From contig JBKAGE010000038.1 in the NCBI GenBank assembly GCA_046290225.1, positions 64,001 to 128,000 of the forward strand: a DNA stretch of 64,000 nt, in the 5' to 3' direction. Positions 39,374 to 50,228 of this stretch are shown here, piece by piece. Below the pieces are notes generated by a model, which did not search any database, had not been told where the DNA came from, and was given only the letters and a program-made list of their open reading frames with translations. Position 1 is the stretch's first letter; the number at the start of each line of letters is the position of its first letter. A program made the position numbers and the translations under genes. The DNA comes from Bradymonadia bacterium (lineage in GTDB: Bacteria > Myxococcota_A > Bradymonadia > UBA7976 > UBA1532).

Positions 39374-40861
39374 TCACTCAGAGGGCTTTTCAATCGACGA
39401 AGCCCAAGCATCTCCGGACGATGTCGCCCGTCCGTCTTCCTCGAGCTTGATCAGGTGGGCCTTCAGGGAGAGCTCGGCGATGGGCCACACCTCGGGCGCC
39501 ACGTCGCCGTACACTTGGGGCAATAGCTCGGCGAGGGGCGTCGGCGCGGGTGTGAGCGCCCGCATCACCAGGGCCTCGCGCATGAGGCGGTGCTCGATGT
39601 ATCCCGTAAGCTTGGCCTCCACGCCGCCGATCACCGGCCCATGGCTGGGCATCAAACAGGCGGGGGCAATGTCTCTGAGGCGACGCAAGCTCTCGAGGTA
39701 CAAGGCCATCGATCCGTCGCCGGGCTCCACCAGGATCGTGCCGACGCCCGCGACCATGTCGCCGCTCACCATGCACCGAGTGGCAGTGTCGAGGAAGCAC
39801 AGGTGCCCCGGCGCGTGACCGGGCGTGTGCAACACCTGCCAGTCCCCCGTATCGCAGGGCAACACGTCGCCTTCGTCGATGAGCACGTCCACGTCGAAGC
39901 CCACCCTGCTCGCCGTCTCGGGGTGCCCGTAAATGGGCACGCCCAAGGCCCGGGCGAGGTGAGCGGCCCCGCCGACGTGATCATTGTGGTGATGGGTGAG
40001 CACCATGCCCTTCACCTCTGCGCCCTCGGCCATCCGCGCCCGCAAGTGTGCCTCCAGAGCCGACCGGCCCTCTGGATAGGGCGATGCAGGATCGAAGACC
40101 CACAACGTACGCTCACCGCCGATGTACACATTGGTGTGGGTTGCCGGGGGCAGCGTCGGCGTCAACACAGGGAACAAGGTCACCCCTGGACGAATGCGGG
40201 CATATCTCGGTGCCTGCCCTCGGGCCTCTTCGATGGCTTCGAAGCGCGCCGGCGCGTTCAATGCCCCTTCACCCAAAGCCTCCAGCAACCACTGTGTGGA
40301 AGGGGCCAGCAGAACCTCTCCTACAGACCACGCCGCAAGCGCCTCTTGGGCGGTGATCCATGCACCATCTTGGAGCTCGGAATGATCAGGCCCGATCTTC
40401 ACGTACTCTGGTGCCTCCACTTCAGCAGCATAGAAGTAAGTCAGGAATGGCTTCACCACGTAATCGGGGGTACGCCACCGACCTGCTGGGATCAGTCCGG
40501 TCAAATCCAAGGTGATGTGCAGCGACTTGAGCGCGTTGGCGAAAGATGTACCTGCGGAGATGGCCTGCTCGAAGGCAACGCGTTCACTGGGGCTCAACTG
40601 CGCCCCCACCAGATATCCCACCTCTTCCCAGGTCTCTCGAATCGCCGCCACCTGGGCCTGACGCACCTCGGGATCGGCGTCGCCTCCTTGGGTGGGGACC
40701 TCGAGATCCTCAGGCTCTGCCCGGCCTCCAGGGAAACAATGATAGCCACTCAGAAAGCTGCTGTTGGGGTGCCGACGGGCCCAAAAGACGCGGGGTGTTC
40801 CATCCCGCGAATGATGGATCAAGAGAATGGAGCCGCTGAGGACGAGCGAGGGGTTGGCCAT
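39374..40861 (-). CDS. Nudix hydrolase fused to metallo-beta-lactamase (LACTB2-like) domain
   Basis: FPGGR..AAIRETWEEVG; TPTLPPATHTN, THHHNDHVGG, TPGHAPGH, GDMV, PSHG; C-terminal wHTH (AHLIKLEEDG). Confidence 0.88.
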   Translation of the reverse strand: MANPSLVLSGSILLIHHSRDGTPRVFWARRHPNSSFLSGYHCFPGGRAEPEDLEVPTQGGDADPEVRQAQVAAIRETWEEVGYLVGAQLSPSERVAFEQAISAGTSFANALKSLHITLDLTGLIPAGRWRTPDYVVKPFLTYFYAAEVEAPEYVKIGPDHSELQDGAWITAQEALAAWSVGEVLLAPSTQWLLEALGEGALNAPARFEAIEEARGQAPRYARIRPGVTLFPVLTPTLPPATHTNVYIGGERTLWVFDPASPYPEGRSALEAHLRARMAEGAEVKGMVLTHHHNDHVGGAAHLARALGVPIYGHPETASRVGFDVDVLIDEGDVLPCDTGDWQVLHTPGHAPGHLCFLDTATRCMVSGDMVAGVGTILVEPGDGSMALYLESLRRLRDIAPACLMPSHGPVIGGVEAKLTGYIEHRLMREALVMRALTPAPTPLAELLPQVYGDVAPEVWPIAELSLKAHLIKLEEDGRATSSGDAWASSIEKPSE

Positions 40862-44743: not shown

Positions 44744-44818
44744 ACCCATCCTCTCTCAATGTATTTTCGAGATGGTGTTACCTTCTCTGGGCCTACCAAT
44801 GGCCACATGGGAGCGTTC

Positions 44819-45436
44819 ATGGATCTGCTCGATCTCTTCTCCACCCCGATCCTCGTGCAGCGACTCCCGGACATGGCACATCTCAATGTGAACTGCTTGA
44901 GCTGGATCAACGCTCGCCGAGCTGCCGATCCTGAGGGCATTCACAGGGCCAACGCGGGGGGAGGCTGGCACTCGACACCTGATCTCGCCCTGCGCCGTAC
45001 GGAGCCGTGCGGCCTGCTCCTCGATCACCTCGTAGCGGCGAGCCGGGAAGCCCTCGGCGCGCACTACCAGAGGATCACACCGGAGATGCCTCTCCTGGAG
45101 CTCGGCGTTCAGGCGTGGGCCATGGTCTTGGAGAAAGGGGGCTATGTGGTGCCCCACGATCATGTCGGGGGGCATTGGTCCGGGGTGTACTATGTCGACT
45201 CTGGAGACGCGGACTCAGGCGGTATGTTGAGCTTTCTGAGTCCGGTGACGGGTGCGCACAACGCGCCAGGGCTGCCGCCAGTGCCCACTGACTTCACCCT
45301 CACACCGGAGACGGGCATGCTCGTGCTCTTTCCGGCGTGGTTGAAGCACTGCGTGCACCCCTACCAGGGCGCTCGACCACGTGTTGCGGTGTCGTTCAAT
45401 CTCTCTCTCCGCACCCGACCACGCCCTGCGGGGTGA
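44819..45436 (+). CDS. Putative 2OG-Fe(II) oxygenase (TIGR02466-like)
   Basis: LFSTPI, NAGGGWHS, PHDH..WSGVYYV, LFPAWLKHCVHP, RVAVSFN. Confidence 0.85.
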   Translation: MDLLDLFSTPILVQRLPDMAHLNVNCLSWINARRAADPEGIHRANAGGGWHSTPDLALRRTEPCGLLLDHLVAASREALGAHYQRITPEMPLLELGVQAWAMVLEKGGYVVPHDHVGGHWSGVYYVDSGDADSGGMLSFLSPVTGAHNAPGLPPVPTDFTLTPETGMLVLFPAWLKHCVHPYQGARPRVAVSFNLSLRTRPRPAG

Positions 45437-45441
45437 TCTGA

Positions 45442-45480
45442 GTTCTCAAAACGTCTCACGCATTCAGAACGTTTTAGAAC
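45442..45480. promoter_or_regulatory. AT-rich imperfect inverted repeat (operator or terminator) upstream of the desaturase-rhodanese operon
   Basis: GTTCT(C)AAAACGT (45442-45454) vs ACGTTTTAGAAC (45469-45480). Confidence 0.4.
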
Positions 45481-45623: not shown

Positions 45624-47483
45624 ATGTCGAGTGCATACATCTACCCCCTGTCTCTGGCGGCCATCTCTGTCTTCGTCGCCATCTTGGAGTGGCGCTGGCC
45701 CAAGCGGCGTCAGCAGCAGCTACGCCCCGATCTGCTCTCCGACTTCATGCACCTCGTCTTCAACGGGCACTTCCTCGGGGTGATCCTCTTCGGGGTGGCC
45801 ACCCACTGGATCCTGCCTCATGTGGACATGTGGCTCGCCGGAGCTGGTCTCACTGAGACGCTGTACCGAAACGCCGCAAGCCAGTGGCCTGTGTGGGTAC
45901 AGATCGCCGTGTGCCTAGTGGTGGTGGACTTCGCCCAGTGGTGCGTTCACAACCTGCTGCATCGTGTGAGTTTTTTCTGGGGGTTCCACAAAACGCACCA
46001 CTCGGTGAAGAACGGCGAGATGGACTGGATCGTGTCGTTTCGGTTCCAGTGGACAGAGGTGGTCGTCTACAAAACCATCCTCTATCTGCCCCTGGCTTTC
46101 TTTGGCTTTGGCGAAGTCGCTGTCTTGACCCACGCCATCTTCGGCACCCTCATCGGGCACCTGAACCACGCCAACCTCGATCTCGACTACGGCCCCCTGC
46201 GGTATGTGCTCAACAACCCCAACATGCACATCTGGCATCACGACTACGAAGGCGACGCGCGCACCACAGTGAACTTCGGCATCATTTTCTCCACCTGGGA
46301 CTATCTGTTCCGTACGGCGAAGGTGCCTGATCACGATCCACCGCGCATCGGCTTCCCCGGGGTGGAGACTTACCCACGCAACTTCCTCGCCCAGATGGGC
46401 TGGCCGTTGAGCCAGTTCACTCAGGGCAGCGGTCACTTCGCCGCCGGCGCCCTCGGCATCGGTCTCATCGCTGGAGGGTGGCTGCTTCAAAAAGGCCCCA
46501 CGCACGCGCAGCACACCCCGATGTTCGGGGAGACGGCGGCGACCTCCCAACCTGCTGGGACGGGCGCAACACCAGGGCCTGGATCATTTGGCCAGAACGA
46601 AGCAGAGCGTACAGCGGCCCTCGCCGCCTTTGGGACCGAGGCTGCCGCCGCGGGGTTTCATGATCCGCAATCGATGGTGAGCGTGAAGGAGCTGGCCCGG
46701 GCGTTGGGGCACCCTCGACTGGTGTTGCTGGACGTGCGCCCGAAAGCACGCTTCGAGATGGGGCATATCCCCCTGGCGCAGCAAATCTACCGTGGCGACT
46801 ACTCGACCAGCGATGAGGTACCAGGCCTGTCCATGTCCTTCGATGCGTTGAGGCGCATGCTCAGTACCCTCGGGGTCCGCTCGGACTCGGTGGTGGTCGC
46901 CTATACCGACGGCGGCCCCGAAGCTTATCGGCTCTGGTGGACCCTCAAGCAGGTCACGGGTCTCTCGATCCGCGTACTCGATGGAGGTCTTCAGCAATGG
47001 AAGGCTCATGGCTTCGGCCTCGCCGAGGGCCGTGGGCTCGGCGTGAAGTCACACGATCTCGCCTTGGAGGCCCCTGCTCGACCACATCGCCCCAGCTGGG
47101 CAGCCATCGACGCCTTCCTGAAACGTCACGAGGACGCCGTCCTCATCGATACGCGCTCCAAGGCGGAGTTCGACGGTGAGAAGCACCACAAGAAAGCGGC
47201 TCGCCCCGGCCATATTCCTGGGGCGAGGTACATGCCGTGGTACGCCATCGTGCGAGACACAGAGACTGACTACCGCCTGAGCGTGCCAGGTGATCTCGCC
47301 CGGCGCTTTGAGGCGCTCGGGGTGACCCCGAAGGCCCCGGTGGTGACCTATTGTCAGTCGGGTACCCGCTCTGCAGGGGTGTACTATGCCCTCCATCAGC
47401 TGGGCTGGCCTCCGGATCGGCTGATGAACTACGACGGCTCCTGGGCCGAATACAGTCGTATGACAGACATGCCGGTGGAGTGA
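45624..47483 (+). CDS. Fatty-acid hydroxylase/sterol desaturase fused to tandem rhodanese (sulfurtransferase)
   Basis: His boxes HNLLH, HKTHH, HLNH, HIWHH and NFG..WDYLF; then LDVRP..GHIP, LDGG, GHIPGA, active-site YCQSGTR and C-terminal YDGSWAEY. Confidence 0.9.
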   Translation: MSSAYIYPLSLAAISVFVAILEWRWPKRRQQQLRPDLLSDFMHLVFNGHFLGVILFGVATHWILPHVDMWLAGAGLTETLYRNAASQWPVWVQIAVCLVVVDFAQWCVHNLLHRVSFFWGFHKTHHSVKNGEMDWIVSFRFQWTEVVVYKTILYLPLAFFGFGEVAVLTHAIFGTLIGHLNHANLDLDYGPLRYVLNNPNMHIWHHDYEGDARTTVNFGIIFSTWDYLFRTAKVPDHDPPRIGFPGVETYPRNFLAQMGWPLSQFTQGSGHFAAGALGIGLIAGGWLLQKGPTHAQHTPMFGETAATSQPAGTGATPGPGSFGQNEAERTAALAAFGTEAAAAGFHDPQSMVSVKELARALGHPRLVLLDVRPKARFEMGHIPLAQQIYRGDYSTSDEVPGLSMSFDALRRMLSTLGVRSDSVVVAYTDGGPEAYRLWWTLKQVTGLSIRVLDGGLQQWKAHGFGLAEGRGLGVKSHDLALEAPARPHRPSWAAIDAFLKRHEDAVLIDTRSKAEFDGEKHHKKAARPGHIPGARYMPWYAIVRDTETDYRLSVPGDLARRFEALGVTPKAPVVTYCQSGTRSAGVYYALHQLGWPPDRLMNYDGSWAEYSRMTDMPVE

Positions 47484-47484
47484 G

Positions 47485-48549
47485 ATGAGCGCTCAGCTTC
47501 ACCGACTCGCACTCGCGACGATGGCACTTGTCTGCCTTGCCTCAGCGTGCATGGCACCCGAAAGCATCTCCAACTCCGACTCGAGCACGGTACGAGGTGT
47601 CGCTCTGGGCCTCTTTGCCACAGATCCCGAGTTCGATTATGGAGACCTCGTCGATGAGATCGCCGCTCGAGGCGCCACGGAGGTACTGGTGGTGATCAAC
47701 GGGCACCAGAGCGATCTACACACTGCAGATGTCGCCCTGACGTATGGGCCCTCAGTCTCTACCATCGAGCGCACCTTCTCCCAGATCCGTCGTCACGGCA
47801 TGGGCATCACCGTGATGCCCACAGTACAGCTCCTTCGACGCTCCCCTGGGGTATGGCGAGGGCGCATCTCACCCCGTCAGGGGCCCAACGCCTGGTTCTC
47901 GGCCTATCGCCGCTTCATGCTCCCTCTCGCCCGCATGGCCTCGACGGCTGGGGCAGATCGCTTCATCGTCGGCAGCGAGCTGGTGAGTCTCACTGTGTAT
48001 GAGGCATCGTGGCGTGCCCTCATCAGCGAGCTGCGGACCATCTTTCCGGGGCGACTGACCTATTCGGCAAACTGGGATCACTACACTCAAGTGCCCTTCT
48101 GGGACGCCCTCGACGAGATCGGCGTCACCGGGTACTTCCCCCTCGTCGAATCGGGAGAGGCGATCCCAAGAGGCATCGCGGCGTGGCGCCCTCATCGAGA
48201 TGCGCTGAGCCACTTCGCGACACACCACGGCAAGCCCCTGCTCATCACCGAGCTGGGGTACGCGTCCACCCTTGGCGCGGCACAGTCTCCCTGGCAGGGC
48301 GGCGGCACCACCCCTTCTCGCGACGCGCTGCAGCTCCAAGCGGATCTCCTGACCCAGTTCTGTGATGCCTTCACCGCCCCCGACGCCAAGGCCATCGGCG
48401 GGTTCTTCTTCTGGAACTGGTTCGGGGTGGGCGGCCCTCGCGACCCGGGCTTCACCCCAAGAGGCAAGCCCGCAGCTCAGGCCGTGGAGCGCTGCCTGCG
48501 CAGCGCCCGATGGCCCAAACCCAAACCCGACGCAGTGGCAGCTCGATGA
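47485..48549 (+). CDS. GH113-like glycoside hydrolase (TIM barrel), lipoprotein
   Basis: LASAC lipobox; WRGRI, VGSEL, LTYSANWD, FWDALD, ITELGY, FTPRGKPA. Confidence 0.8.
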   Translation: MSAQLHRLALATMALVCLASACMAPESISNSDSSTVRGVALGLFATDPEFDYGDLVDEIAARGATEVLVVINGHQSDLHTADVALTYGPSVSTIERTFSQIRRHGMGITVMPTVQLLRRSPGVWRGRISPRQGPNAWFSAYRRFMLPLARMASTAGADRFIVGSELVSLTVYEASWRALISELRTIFPGRLTYSANWDHYTQVPFWDALDEIGVTGYFPLVESGEAIPRGIAAWRPHRDALSHFATHHGKPLLITELGYASTLGAAQSPWQGGGTTPSRDALQLQADLLTQFCDAFTAPDAKAIGGFFFWNWFGVGGPRDPGFTPRGKPAAQAVERCLRSARWPKPKPDAVAAR

Positions 48550-50228
48550 GCGACGTACCCACCCAACCATCTCACGAGGACACGCTGACGATGTCTGATC
48601 GACCCCACGTGAACCGCCGTCGCTTCATCAGCGGCGCCCTCGCCAGTGCCGGCCTGGTGGCTTCGGGCTGTCAGAGAGATCGCCCTCAGGGCAGAAGCAC
48701 GCCCACGCCTGGAGAGACCCCCGTGGCTCCCCCCCTGGTGTCGCCGCCGGCCAACCCCTCCCCAGGTGTGCCCTCGATGCCTTCTCTCCCTGAAGGCCTC
48801 GACCCATCACTGTTTCACATGCACACCCGTCGCCCCCTCACCTTGGAGGCGAAGCGCTCGAGCATGGGCCAGAGCCCCATCACCCCGCTGTCTCGCTTCT
48901 TCGTGCGCAACAACCTGCCCATGCCCGACGCCAGCATCACGGCCCGACCTGATCTCTGGGCCCTCGAGATCCTCGGCGTGGTTCAGCCGAACACGCTGAA
49001 CGTAGGCCAGCTCAAGCAGCTGCCTGCTCAAACCATCACCACAGTGCTGCAATGCTCTGGGAACGGCCGCAAGTACTATGAGCACGGCCCCTCGGGCTCT
49101 CAATGGGGTACGGGCGCCGCCGGCTGCGCCATGTGGACAGGGGTGTCTGTGGCCACGGTCGTACAGGCCCTTGGTGGCGCGCTCGATGACACACGCTTCA
49201 TGACCAGCACCGGCGGCGAGGTGCTCCCCGAGGGCATCGATCCGCTCACCGCCATCGTCGAACGCTCCATCCCAAAGGAGAAAGGCCTGCAGGACTGCCT
49301 GCTCGCCTGGGAGATGAATGGTCAGCCAATCCCCATCACCCATGGGGGCCCCCTGCGACTCATCGTGCCCGGTTACTATGGCTGCAACCAGATCAAGTAC
49401 ATCAAGCGCCTCGCCTTCACCGCCGAGCAGACCCGCTCGAAGATCCAATCTTCGGGGTACCGCCTTCGGCGCATCGGCGCAAAAGGCAACCCCAGCCAGC
49501 CCTCGATGTGGCAGATGAACGTCAAGTCGTGGATCAACGGCCCCGGCGCTGACGATGCCCCGGTACTCGCTGGCCCGGTGCAGCTTCACGGCGTGGCGTT
49601 TGCCGGGGGCACACCGATCGAGACGGTGGAGATCACCCTCGACGGCGGCCAAACATGGCAGCCCGCGCGGTTCACCGGACCTGATTTGGGGCCCTACGCA
49701 TGGCGCACCTTCGCCTTCGAGACCCAGCTGCAGCCCGGCGAGCACGTCATCGCCTCTCGGGCCACCGACGCCGAGGGCAACCAGCAACCTCGACGCCGAC
49801 TCGAGAACGAGCGCGGCTACGGCAACAACGCCTGGGGCGATCTCGCCTTGAAGGTGAAGGTGGTGAAGACATTGCCAAAGCCTGTCCCTGAGCCCACCCC
49901 GTCGAAGGCACCTCCAACCGCAAAGGGCCACAACAGCTCACCATCTTCGTCAGGGAAGAAGGCGAAGCTTTCCGCTCAAGGTGAGCGCGGCAAAGTGCTC
50001 TTCACCCAGACCGCTCAGCCCTCATGCTCAGTGTGCCACAGCCTCGCAGACGCTGGCTCGAAGGGGGCGGTCGGCCCCGACCTGAACGACCTCGCCCCGG
50101 ACGCGCAGCGGGTGGTCCAGGCTGTGACCCATGGTGTAGGCACCATGCCCGCTTTCAAGGGCAACCTCTCGCCCGACCAGATTAAAGATCTGGCGCAATA
50201 CATCGTCGAAGCCACGAGCACCCCCTGA
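48546..50228 (+). CDS. Tat-exported sulfite oxidase-family molybdoenzyme (SorT/SorA-like) fused to a C-terminal c-type cytochrome (SorU-like)
   Basis: NRRRFI Tat motif and ASGC lipobox; FFVRNNL, LQCSGNGR, MNGQPIP..HGGPLRLIVPGYYG; CSVCH..GPDL..GTMPAF. Start 48546 (ATGA overlap) or 48591. Confidence 0.9.
   Translation: MSDVPTQPSHEDTLTMSDRPHVNRRRFISGALASAGLVASGCQRDRPQGRSTPTPGETPVAPPLVSPPANPSPGVPSMPSLPEGLDPSLFHMHTRRPLTLEAKRSSMGQSPITPLSRFFVRNNLPMPDASITARPDLWALEILGVVQPNTLNVGQLKQLPAQTITTVLQCSGNGRKYYEHGPSGSQWGTGAAGCAMWTGVSVATVVQALGGALDDTRFMTSTGGEVLPEGIDPLTAIVERSIPKEKGLQDCLLAWEMNGQPIPITHGGPLRLIVPGYYGCNQIKYIKRLAFTAEQTRSKIQSSGYRLRRIGAKGNPSQPSMWQMNVKSWINGPGADDAPVLAGPVQLHGVAFAGGTPIETVEITLDGGQTWQPARFTGPDLGPYAWRTFAFETQLQPGEHVIASRATDAEGNQQPRRRLENERGYGNNAWGDLALKVKVVKTLPKPVPEPTPSKAPPTAKGHNSSPSSSGKKAKLSAQGERGKVLFTQTAQPSCSVCHSLADAGSKGAVGPDLNDLAPDAQRVVQAVTHGVGTMPAFKGNLSPDQIKDLAQYIVEATSTP

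Follow-up and report, generated by a model that had tools for sequence, protein, structure and literature searches.

We show here that a single polypeptide from a Bradymonadia bacterium joins a fatty-acid-hydroxylase-family membrane domain to a two-domain rhodanese, and that this fusion is real and conserved. It evolved twice and probably represents a new architecture within the heterotrophic sulfur-oxidation toolkit. The gene lies in a window of 64,000 nucleotides (contig JBKAGE010000038.1, positions 64,001 to 128,000), where its coding sequence, P0001, occupies positions 45624-47483 of the forward strand; all features given below lie on this strand unless stated otherwise. The protein is probably a sulfur-handling module and likely represents an undescribed step of bacterial sulfur oxidation. 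A sequence-only reading of this DNA had claimed a single uninterrupted open reading frame, four histidine boxes, an extra hydrophobic helix and two rhodanese domains with an intact CQSGTR loop, and all of these stand. The open frame encodes 619 amino acids, in which Pfam recognizes FA_hydroxylase (PF04116) at residues 95-231 (E 1.2e-25; score 90.9 bits, cut-off 31) and Rhodanese twice (E 4.6e-31). Lactamase_B has no Pfam match in P0001, and the partner of the rhodanese is PF04116, not the metallo-beta-lactamase-fold mononuclear iron domain of the persulfide dioxygenase (PDO) type. By profile and by residues, P0001 is assigned to PF04116 and to the two-domain rhodaneses, and not to OlsE, SseA or the PDO fusions. 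Among 236 matches the best 120 (query included) all have both Pfam domains, and the 119 listed full-length homologues share 53-65% identity over 94-100% coverage and belong to Myxococcota where titles name a group. A search of 301 genomes of the window's phylum gave a match at E<=1e-50 in 28; in 15 genomes, the window's own among them, the complete fusion reads through as a single stop-free frame. Because 119 further clusters and 15/301 genomes hold the intact fusion, an assembly artefact is excluded. Most related GTDB loci are titled Myxococcota. Four records titled Enterobacteriaceae or Klebsiella (L010, L033, L057, L062) have a GC content of 63-73% and are nested among Myxococcota sequences, and these titles are probably wrong. 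At one further locus (L202, G394:C7:13644-15492) a frameshift or an assembly error has split the fusion in two, the break falling after the membrane domain and ahead of the extra helix, and GH113 and SorT genes still follow downstream. An automatic JGI label already gives both domains, and the architecture is thus present in databases, while the ESM Atlas returns generic sterol-desaturase clusters only. In the literature searched, which reached few subscription papers and excluded supplements, we found no description of a desaturase or hydroxylase paired with a rhodanese.

The same pairing exists in the opposite order. A profile search returned P0162, in which two rhodanese domains come first and the desaturase follows. 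P0162 heads its own family, whose members are Bacteroidota where names are given. Among the 120 reverse fusions listed, 98 have at least 560 amino acids; 92 of these 98 begin with a hydrophobic, signal-like N-terminus and 97 keep the Cys loop. In a tree of 194 domains, 175 fall into one subfamily (Shimodaira-Hasegawa-like approximate likelihood-ratio support 99), and the two fusion orders occupy separate clades. One clade for all fused forms is rejected by the approximately unbiased (AU) test (p-AU 1.7e-54, 60-row tree with 20 fused rows constrained together), a result to which unfused members nested within each fusion clade contribute. According to these trees, the desaturase-rhodanese pairing arose separately in two bacterial phyla. 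A second sample centred on G001 and aimed at Bacteroidota gave 3/133 hits and is left out of the counts.

The link of the desaturase subfamily to sulfur genes is strong. Open reading frames were called at each locus, marker hidden Markov models (HMMs) were made from annotated neighbours, and duplicates were removed. Within 8 kb of the 44 forward-fusion loci we find a GH113-like gene at 35, a Sor-type sulfite dehydrogenase gene at 25, DsrE at six, PDO at four, SQR at two and arsenosugar genes at none, counts that are lower bounds as 11 of the 44 loci have less than 8 kb of flank. Sor has been recruited more than once, because the linked enzymes form a SorT-like and a SorA-like lineage that are only about 32% identical. 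At L002, L013, L016, L021 and L029 a SorA-like enzyme is paired with a cytochrome bearing a Tll0287-like domain in place of SorU. The Bacteroidota form, fused or as adjacent genes, follows a molybdenum sulfite dehydrogenase and a cytochrome in metagenome loci. Several fusions are flanked by ArsR-rhodanese regulators and by DsrE (at L003, L023, L030 and L031 by such a regulator and a signal-bearing DsrE gene), which suggests persulfide-sensing control. The association is also seen across genomes: a SorT-like gene (E<=1e-90) occurs in 11/15 fusion genomes against 11/286 others (Fisher p 2e-11), a divergent SorA-like gene lies nearby in three further fusion genomes, and type II SQR is found in 10/15 against 37/286 (Fisher p 6e-6).

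Unfused members share this context. A sulfur marker lies within 8 kb of 34/87 unfused subfamily loci (28 of them outside arsenosugar clusters) but of only 1/43 other PF04116 loci; all unfused loci counted had 8 kb of flank or more, and the controls (39 loci from the window's phylum and four paralogues from the same genome, one of 40 fetched having been dropped as a subfamily member) stem from one phylum, which favours the contrast. The nearest homologues do show sulfur linkage, contrary to the outcome that would have spoken against the sequence-only reading. The statement in the sequence-only reading on stand-alone desaturases near YeeE and rhodanese genes in Bacteroidota proved correct: such operons with TauE, PDO, rhodanese, YeeE and DsrE are present on a Pontibacter plasmid and at L141 and L148. 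The plasmid order is TauE, a metallo-beta-lactamase-fold protein, rhodanese, YeeE, DUF6691, DoxX, DsrE and then a "sterol desaturase", and locus L140 holds SQR, PDO, DUF6691, Sor, an exported rhodanese and the desaturase in one run. PDO and SQR share operons with the desaturase at L013, L036 and L140. As the fusion is found together with both enzymes, it does not replace them: PDO replacement as a general rule is contradicted by PDO in these operons, in that of Pontibacter and in the fusion's own genome, and SQR replacement by the enrichment of SQR in fusion genomes. The own genome (99% complete) encodes GshB and two PDO-like proteins, and its search gave no SoxB above cut-off and no match to TsdA or SoxA.

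The membrane domain (residues 1-265, 45624-46418) is predicted to contain five transmembrane helices and a cytoplasmic cap, judging from the Pfam match, the structural model and an alignment to Scs7p. AlphaFold2 gave a mean predicted local distance difference test score of 88.4 for the full protein and 95.1 for residues 1-291, with helices at 3-24, 37-73, 90-114, 143-160, 164-182 and 270-289. An extra N-terminal helix (residues 6-24, 45639-45695) lies outside the Scs7p-aligned core and is predicted N-out. The four histidine boxes are H109xxxH113 (HNLLH, 109-113, 45948-45962), H122xxH125H126 (HKTHH, 122-126, 45987-46001), H179xxH182 (HLNH, 179-182, 46158-46169) and H202xxH205H206 (HIWHH, 202-206, 46227-46241). 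In an alignment of 40 of the 120 listed homologues the ten histidines and Cys577 are invariant (40/40), and the histidines of the putative di-iron ligand set are invariant in 174-175 of the 175 subfamily members. H179 is specific to the subfamily (174/175 members, 0/19 controls). Ten histidines would fit the five-plus-five metal coordination described for Scs7p in the available part of PMC10110569, and by this analogy H179 would be the tenth metal ligand. Scs7p is also the top Foldseek match of the domain, at E 1.5. The VIA comparison, which covered Foldseek's 150 chains, aligns the two moderately (Z 6.0, root-mean-square deviation (rmsd) 4.8, 168 residues aligned over model positions 25-236), and a PDB sequence search with the membrane-domain profile gave nothing below E 0.28. 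The best NCBIfam match is OlsE (NF052566) with 79.5 bits, below the equivalog cut-off of 475. Invariant polar residues occur within the helices (Y7, S15, N47, E145, Y149, N181 in the 175-member alignment), whereas no Cys of the domain is conserved across the 175, C107 being found in 69/175. A Cys relay across the membrane domain is rejected on this basis. Two other desaturases of this type came up in the searches. P0131 ends in a domain that contains a cluster of Cys residues and has no Pfam match. In P0157 the desaturase is joined to a single rhodanese whose loop apparently lacks the Cys, and a hydrophobic segment is inserted behind His box 3.

Behind the membrane domain follows the extra transmembrane helix (residues 270-289 in the model, 46431-46490; hydrophobic stretch FAAGALGIGLIAGGWLL, residues 272-288), which would bring the rhodanese to the periplasm. 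The Pro/Gly linker noted earlier exists, but it is more than filler, since its motif (residues 298-310, 46515-46553) is conserved at G302, E303, A306, S308, Q309 and P310 among the 40 aligned homologues. Rhodanese domain 1 (residues 353-461, 46680-47006) has no Cys, while domain 2 (about residues 490-612, 47091-47459) is catalytic by sequence, its active-site loop C577-Q-S-G-T-R (47352-47369) being identical in 115 of the best 120 homologues. In structure, two-domain sulfurtransferases match the C-terminal half (RhdA, 1e0c: Z 30.5, rmsd 2.5, 267 aligned, 33% identity), and the 3-mercaptopyruvate sulfurtransferase SseA model (NF008557) gives 91.7 bits, below its equivalog cut-off of 250. A complex prediction of residues 1-292 with 296-619 scored 0.00 and is used neither for nor against any reading.

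On which side of the membrane the two sites are placed matters for the mechanism. On average, loop 1 has 4.8 Lys plus Arg in forward fusions and 4.2 in reverse fusions, loop 2 has 1.6 and 1.05, the His-box loop 3.35 and 4.0, and loop 4 about 0 in both. The predicted topology fits His boxes that face the cytoplasm, as is described for AlkB in the available part of PMC10110569. Between His box 4 and the rhodanese of the forward form lies a single helix, between the exported rhodanese and His box 1 of the reverse form there are three, and since both counts are odd the rhodanese would lie outside the cytoplasm in both orders. Adjacent stand-alone rhodanese genes agree with this: 15/17 have a signal or lipobox as judged by eye, the 17 being complete, same-strand, adjacent genes; three genes truncated at a contig end, a split fusion and any rhodanese fused to PDO or ArsR are left out. 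Thus, the rhodanese is predicted to face the periplasm, opposite to the di-iron site. A direct, PDO-like hand-over of persulfide to the iron site, as the earlier comparison with PDO-rhodanese fusions had implied, is not supported by these data: judged from the additional helix, the Lys/Arg bias and the signal peptides of the reverse form, the rhodanese would lie across the membrane, and the membrane domain has no conserved Cys.

Two genes follow the fusion closely. One nucleotide past its stop begins a gene (47485-48549) for a GH113-like TIM-barrel protein with a lipobox and both catalytic-Glu motifs, which scores 125.8 bits against the GH113 cut-off of 27 and aligns to 3CIV/4CD6 (E about 1e-26). 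These Glu motifs are kept in 47/48 and 42/48 GH113-like sequences, and in the tree the fusion-linked GH113 proteins form their own co-inherited clade, separate from the GH113 set of arsenosugar clusters. The third gene of the operon (48546-50228) encodes a SorT-like molybdenum sulfite dehydrogenase fused to a SorU-like cytochrome c. Its ATG overlaps the GH113 stop, the first possible ATG being at 48510, and the protein has a twin-arginine-like N-terminus (RRRF, judged by eye), the Mo-Cys motif and one CxxCH. It reaches 519 bits for SorT (NF052247, cut-off 570) and 104 for the SorU part (cut-off 100). A scan for promoters and terminators found no more than expected by chance.

Taken as a whole, we favour a module that oxidises sulfane sulfur as part of aerobic sulfide/thiosulfate oxidation, and give this full mechanism a probability of about 0.4. 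Cys577 would accept sulfane sulfur from periplasmic thiosulfate or polysulfide and release sulfite, which SorT-SorU would turn into sulfate, passing the electrons to respiration. In the third and weakest step the sulfane would enter the membrane domain as a small membrane-soluble polysulfide or persulfide and be oxidised by the O2-activating di-iron site. Removal of both products would pull an otherwise unfavourable rhodanese reaction; periplasmic PspE makes sulfane sulfur from thiosulfate, this sulfur enters the cytoplasm by a route given as unknown, and product removal is described as a requirement of the forward PspE reaction (PMC10215317). Every catalytic step here is inferred, and the two roles suggested by the sequence-only reading, oxygenase activity on sulfur and a sulfur-modified lipid, are both hypothetical. 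Whether the "sterol desaturase" subfamily, spread over Myxococcota, Bacteroidota, Planctomycetota and further groups, acts as a membrane di-iron sulfur oxygenase, which together with a periplasmic rhodanese and sulfite dehydrogenase would give complete, Sox- and TsdA-independent thiosulfate/polysulfide oxidation in heterotrophs, is a more doubtful proposition.

Several points weigh against this mechanism. The active sites are predicted on opposite faces without a conserved Cys relay between them. A second sulfane oxidiser looks redundant where PDO is already present, as in the own genome with its two PDO-like genes and GshB, and the one precedent for S-oxygenation considered here is a soluble acyl-ACP desaturase of a different fold (PMC8940945, available in part). 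The GH113-like gene is the largest part that the sulfur model leaves without explanation: it is linked more often than Sor (35/44 against 25/44), and inorganic sulfur chemistry gives no account of it. On the side of the counts, the marker HMMs derive from the test loci and favour the test set, the genome-level Fisher tests treat related genomes as independent, which they are not, 53/87 unfused loci have no sulfur marker at all, and 13/128 sit in arsenosugar clusters. Finally, SQR has no match in the own, 99% complete genome.

One rival reading is organosulfur catabolism. Here the exported GH113-like hydrolase would release the aglycone of a glycoside or glycolipid that contains sulfur. The di-iron domain would then hydroxylate the carbon next to the sulfur and so break the C-S bond, and rhodanese and Sor would dispose of the sulfur. 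AGMO breaks ethers via hydroxylation of the adjacent carbon, and C-H hydroxylation is the usual chemistry of the family. We nevertheless regard this as unlikely. In its favour are a GH113-like gene that occurs at most fusion loci as its own co-inherited clade with intact catalytic motifs, and the existence of P0224, an N-terminally partial protein in which a desaturase of the same type is fused to a GH113 domain; di-iron desaturases can, moreover, split thia-substrates into thiol and aldehyde (PMC8940945, in the part available). The GH113 gene is, however, missing from the Bacteroidota Sor-rhodanese-desaturase operons and from L002, L013 and L029, SQR co-occurrence indicates inorganic sulfide, no transporter or catabolic gene recurs in the fusion loci, and the five GH113-like genes of the own genome lie in mixed contexts.

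Lipid modification is a similarly unlikely reading and comes next. To our knowledge, every characterised PF04116 member acts on lipids. The protein would then be an ordinary lipid hydroxylase or desaturase, or would insert rhodanese-supplied sulfur into a lipid, with the envelope being remodelled under sulfide stress. OlsE as the best NCBIfam match and ten histidines as in Scs7p (PMC10110569, in part) are in line with this, as are the many unfused members that lie among housekeeping genes. It gives no account of why the rhodanese stays exported and, by sequence, catalytically intact in each of the two opposite fusions, nor of the repeated recruitment of Sor, and no lipid-synthesis gene recurs beside the fusions.

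It is rather improbable that the membrane domain is a conduit which binds sulfane and carries it from the periplasmic rhodanese to cytoplasmic glutathione and PDO, with a metal site that binds or gates instead of oxidising. The predicted opposite-face topology, the invariant polar residues in the helices and PDO in the same operons or genomes would suit such a role, and an import route for PspE-made sulfane is stated as unknown in the available text of PMC10215317. Against it, the full di-iron ligand set is so invariant that it suggests catalysis, conserved Cys residues are lacking, and YeeE-type transporters are already in the same operons. Very improbable is a role of desaturase, exported rhodanese and GH113 in arsenic/thio-arsenosugar chemistry, to which one Bacteroidota clade in arsS/arsM/TIGR04282/TIGR04283 clusters and ArsS in the own genome point, but an obligate arsenosugar role of the fusion is rejected in view of the lack of arsenosugar genes within 8 kb (0/44), the lack of a significant enrichment of ArsS (9/15 fusion genomes, 120/286 others, Fisher p 0.19) and the separate GH113 clades. 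For the arsenosugar-cluster clade alone the reading may hold. That clade (L143, L157, L161, L162, L169, L181, L192) combines arsS, arsM, TIGR04282 and TIGR04283 with PNP, DUF547, a GH113-like gene and mostly an exported single rhodanese (NF045521). ArsS occurs in 129/301 genomes of the phylum, and in the own genome arsenosugar genes are scattered: ArsS has its peroxidase-like partner with it, and DUF547 and one more GH113-like gene lie close to an ArsM-like methyltransferase (G000:C70:101885-102790; G000:C82:250423-253917).

The sulfane-oxidising module favoured here resembles several known systems in part. With Scs7p and the PF04116 family, whose nearest curated bacterial model is OlsE, it shares the four His boxes and the ten histidines, while its four-helix core aligns only moderately with Scs7p; it differs by two extra helices, the fused rhodanese with its predicted export and the sulfur-gene context. 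RhdA of A. vinelandii, SseA/MST and YnjE likewise consist of two rhodanese folds in tandem, the C-terminal one bearing a single Cys, whereas the fusion is membrane-tethered, predicted periplasmic and has the loop CQSGTR. E. coli PspE, a periplasmic thiosulfate sulfurtransferase, and Wolinella Sud (1qxn, Z 9.9) are exported rhodaneses that mobilise sulfane near the inner membrane, a role that the fusion would share; both are single-domain proteins and not fused to a di-iron membrane enzyme. SorT-SorU and SorAB share the Mo-Cys motif and the cytochrome c with the linked dehydrogenase, which here has both parts in one chain and scores slightly below the SorT cut-off. Parallels in design are the PDO-rhodanese fusions (CstB, Burkholderia PRF) and the SQR-rhodanese fusions of sqr-pdo operons, in which a rhodanese is likewise joined to an oxidising partner of the sulfide-oxidation toolkit (PMC9163753, in the part available), but the partner here is a membrane di-iron protein, with sites predicted on opposite faces. 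The accessible part of that rhodanese survey distinguishes three types (SQR-fused, PDO-fused and free) and leaves a desaturase or hydroxylase unmentioned. A sulfur-gene survey (PMC12345210) does not mention the desaturase either.

A ferredoxin or reductase does not recur beside the fusions at the loci analysed. In the window, a TIGR02466-family 2-oxoglutarate-Fe(II) oxygenase gene lies directly upstream on the same strand (44759-45436) and is not conserved beside other fusions; it is followed by a short inverted repeat with 7-nt arms (45448-45475). Further away, 39374-40861 on the reverse strand encodes a NUDIX, metallo-beta-lactamase and winged-helix fusion protein. Elsewhere in the genome we note a second two-domain rhodanese with a lipoprotein-like N-terminus (C38:172099-173109), a PDO-YeeE-DUF6691 cluster next to a sigma-54 activator (C70:148428-150521), a PDO adjoining a SulP permease (C4:47485-48330) and a second Mo-oxidoreductase near cytochrome c and SulP (C39:20290-21528).

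According to PMC10215317, heterotrophs with SQR and PDO yield thiosulfate as end product, and the way in which periplasmic sulfane gets across the inner membrane is not known. The module is a testable candidate for both gaps, the fate of thiosulfate and the crossing of sulfane, as its Cys and its His boxes can be mutated within a single polypeptide, and cultured, harmless Bacteroidota such as Pontibacter akesuensis carry the unfused form. If the proposed mechanism is true, this would be the first membrane His-box di-iron enzyme acting on an inorganic sulfur substrate, coupled across the membrane. Widespread genes labelled "sterol desaturase family protein, lipid metabolism" would then belong to the sulfur cycle and be missed by current sulfur-gene surveys. 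Even with a lipid or organosulfur substrate, two independent fusions define a new enzyme pairing.

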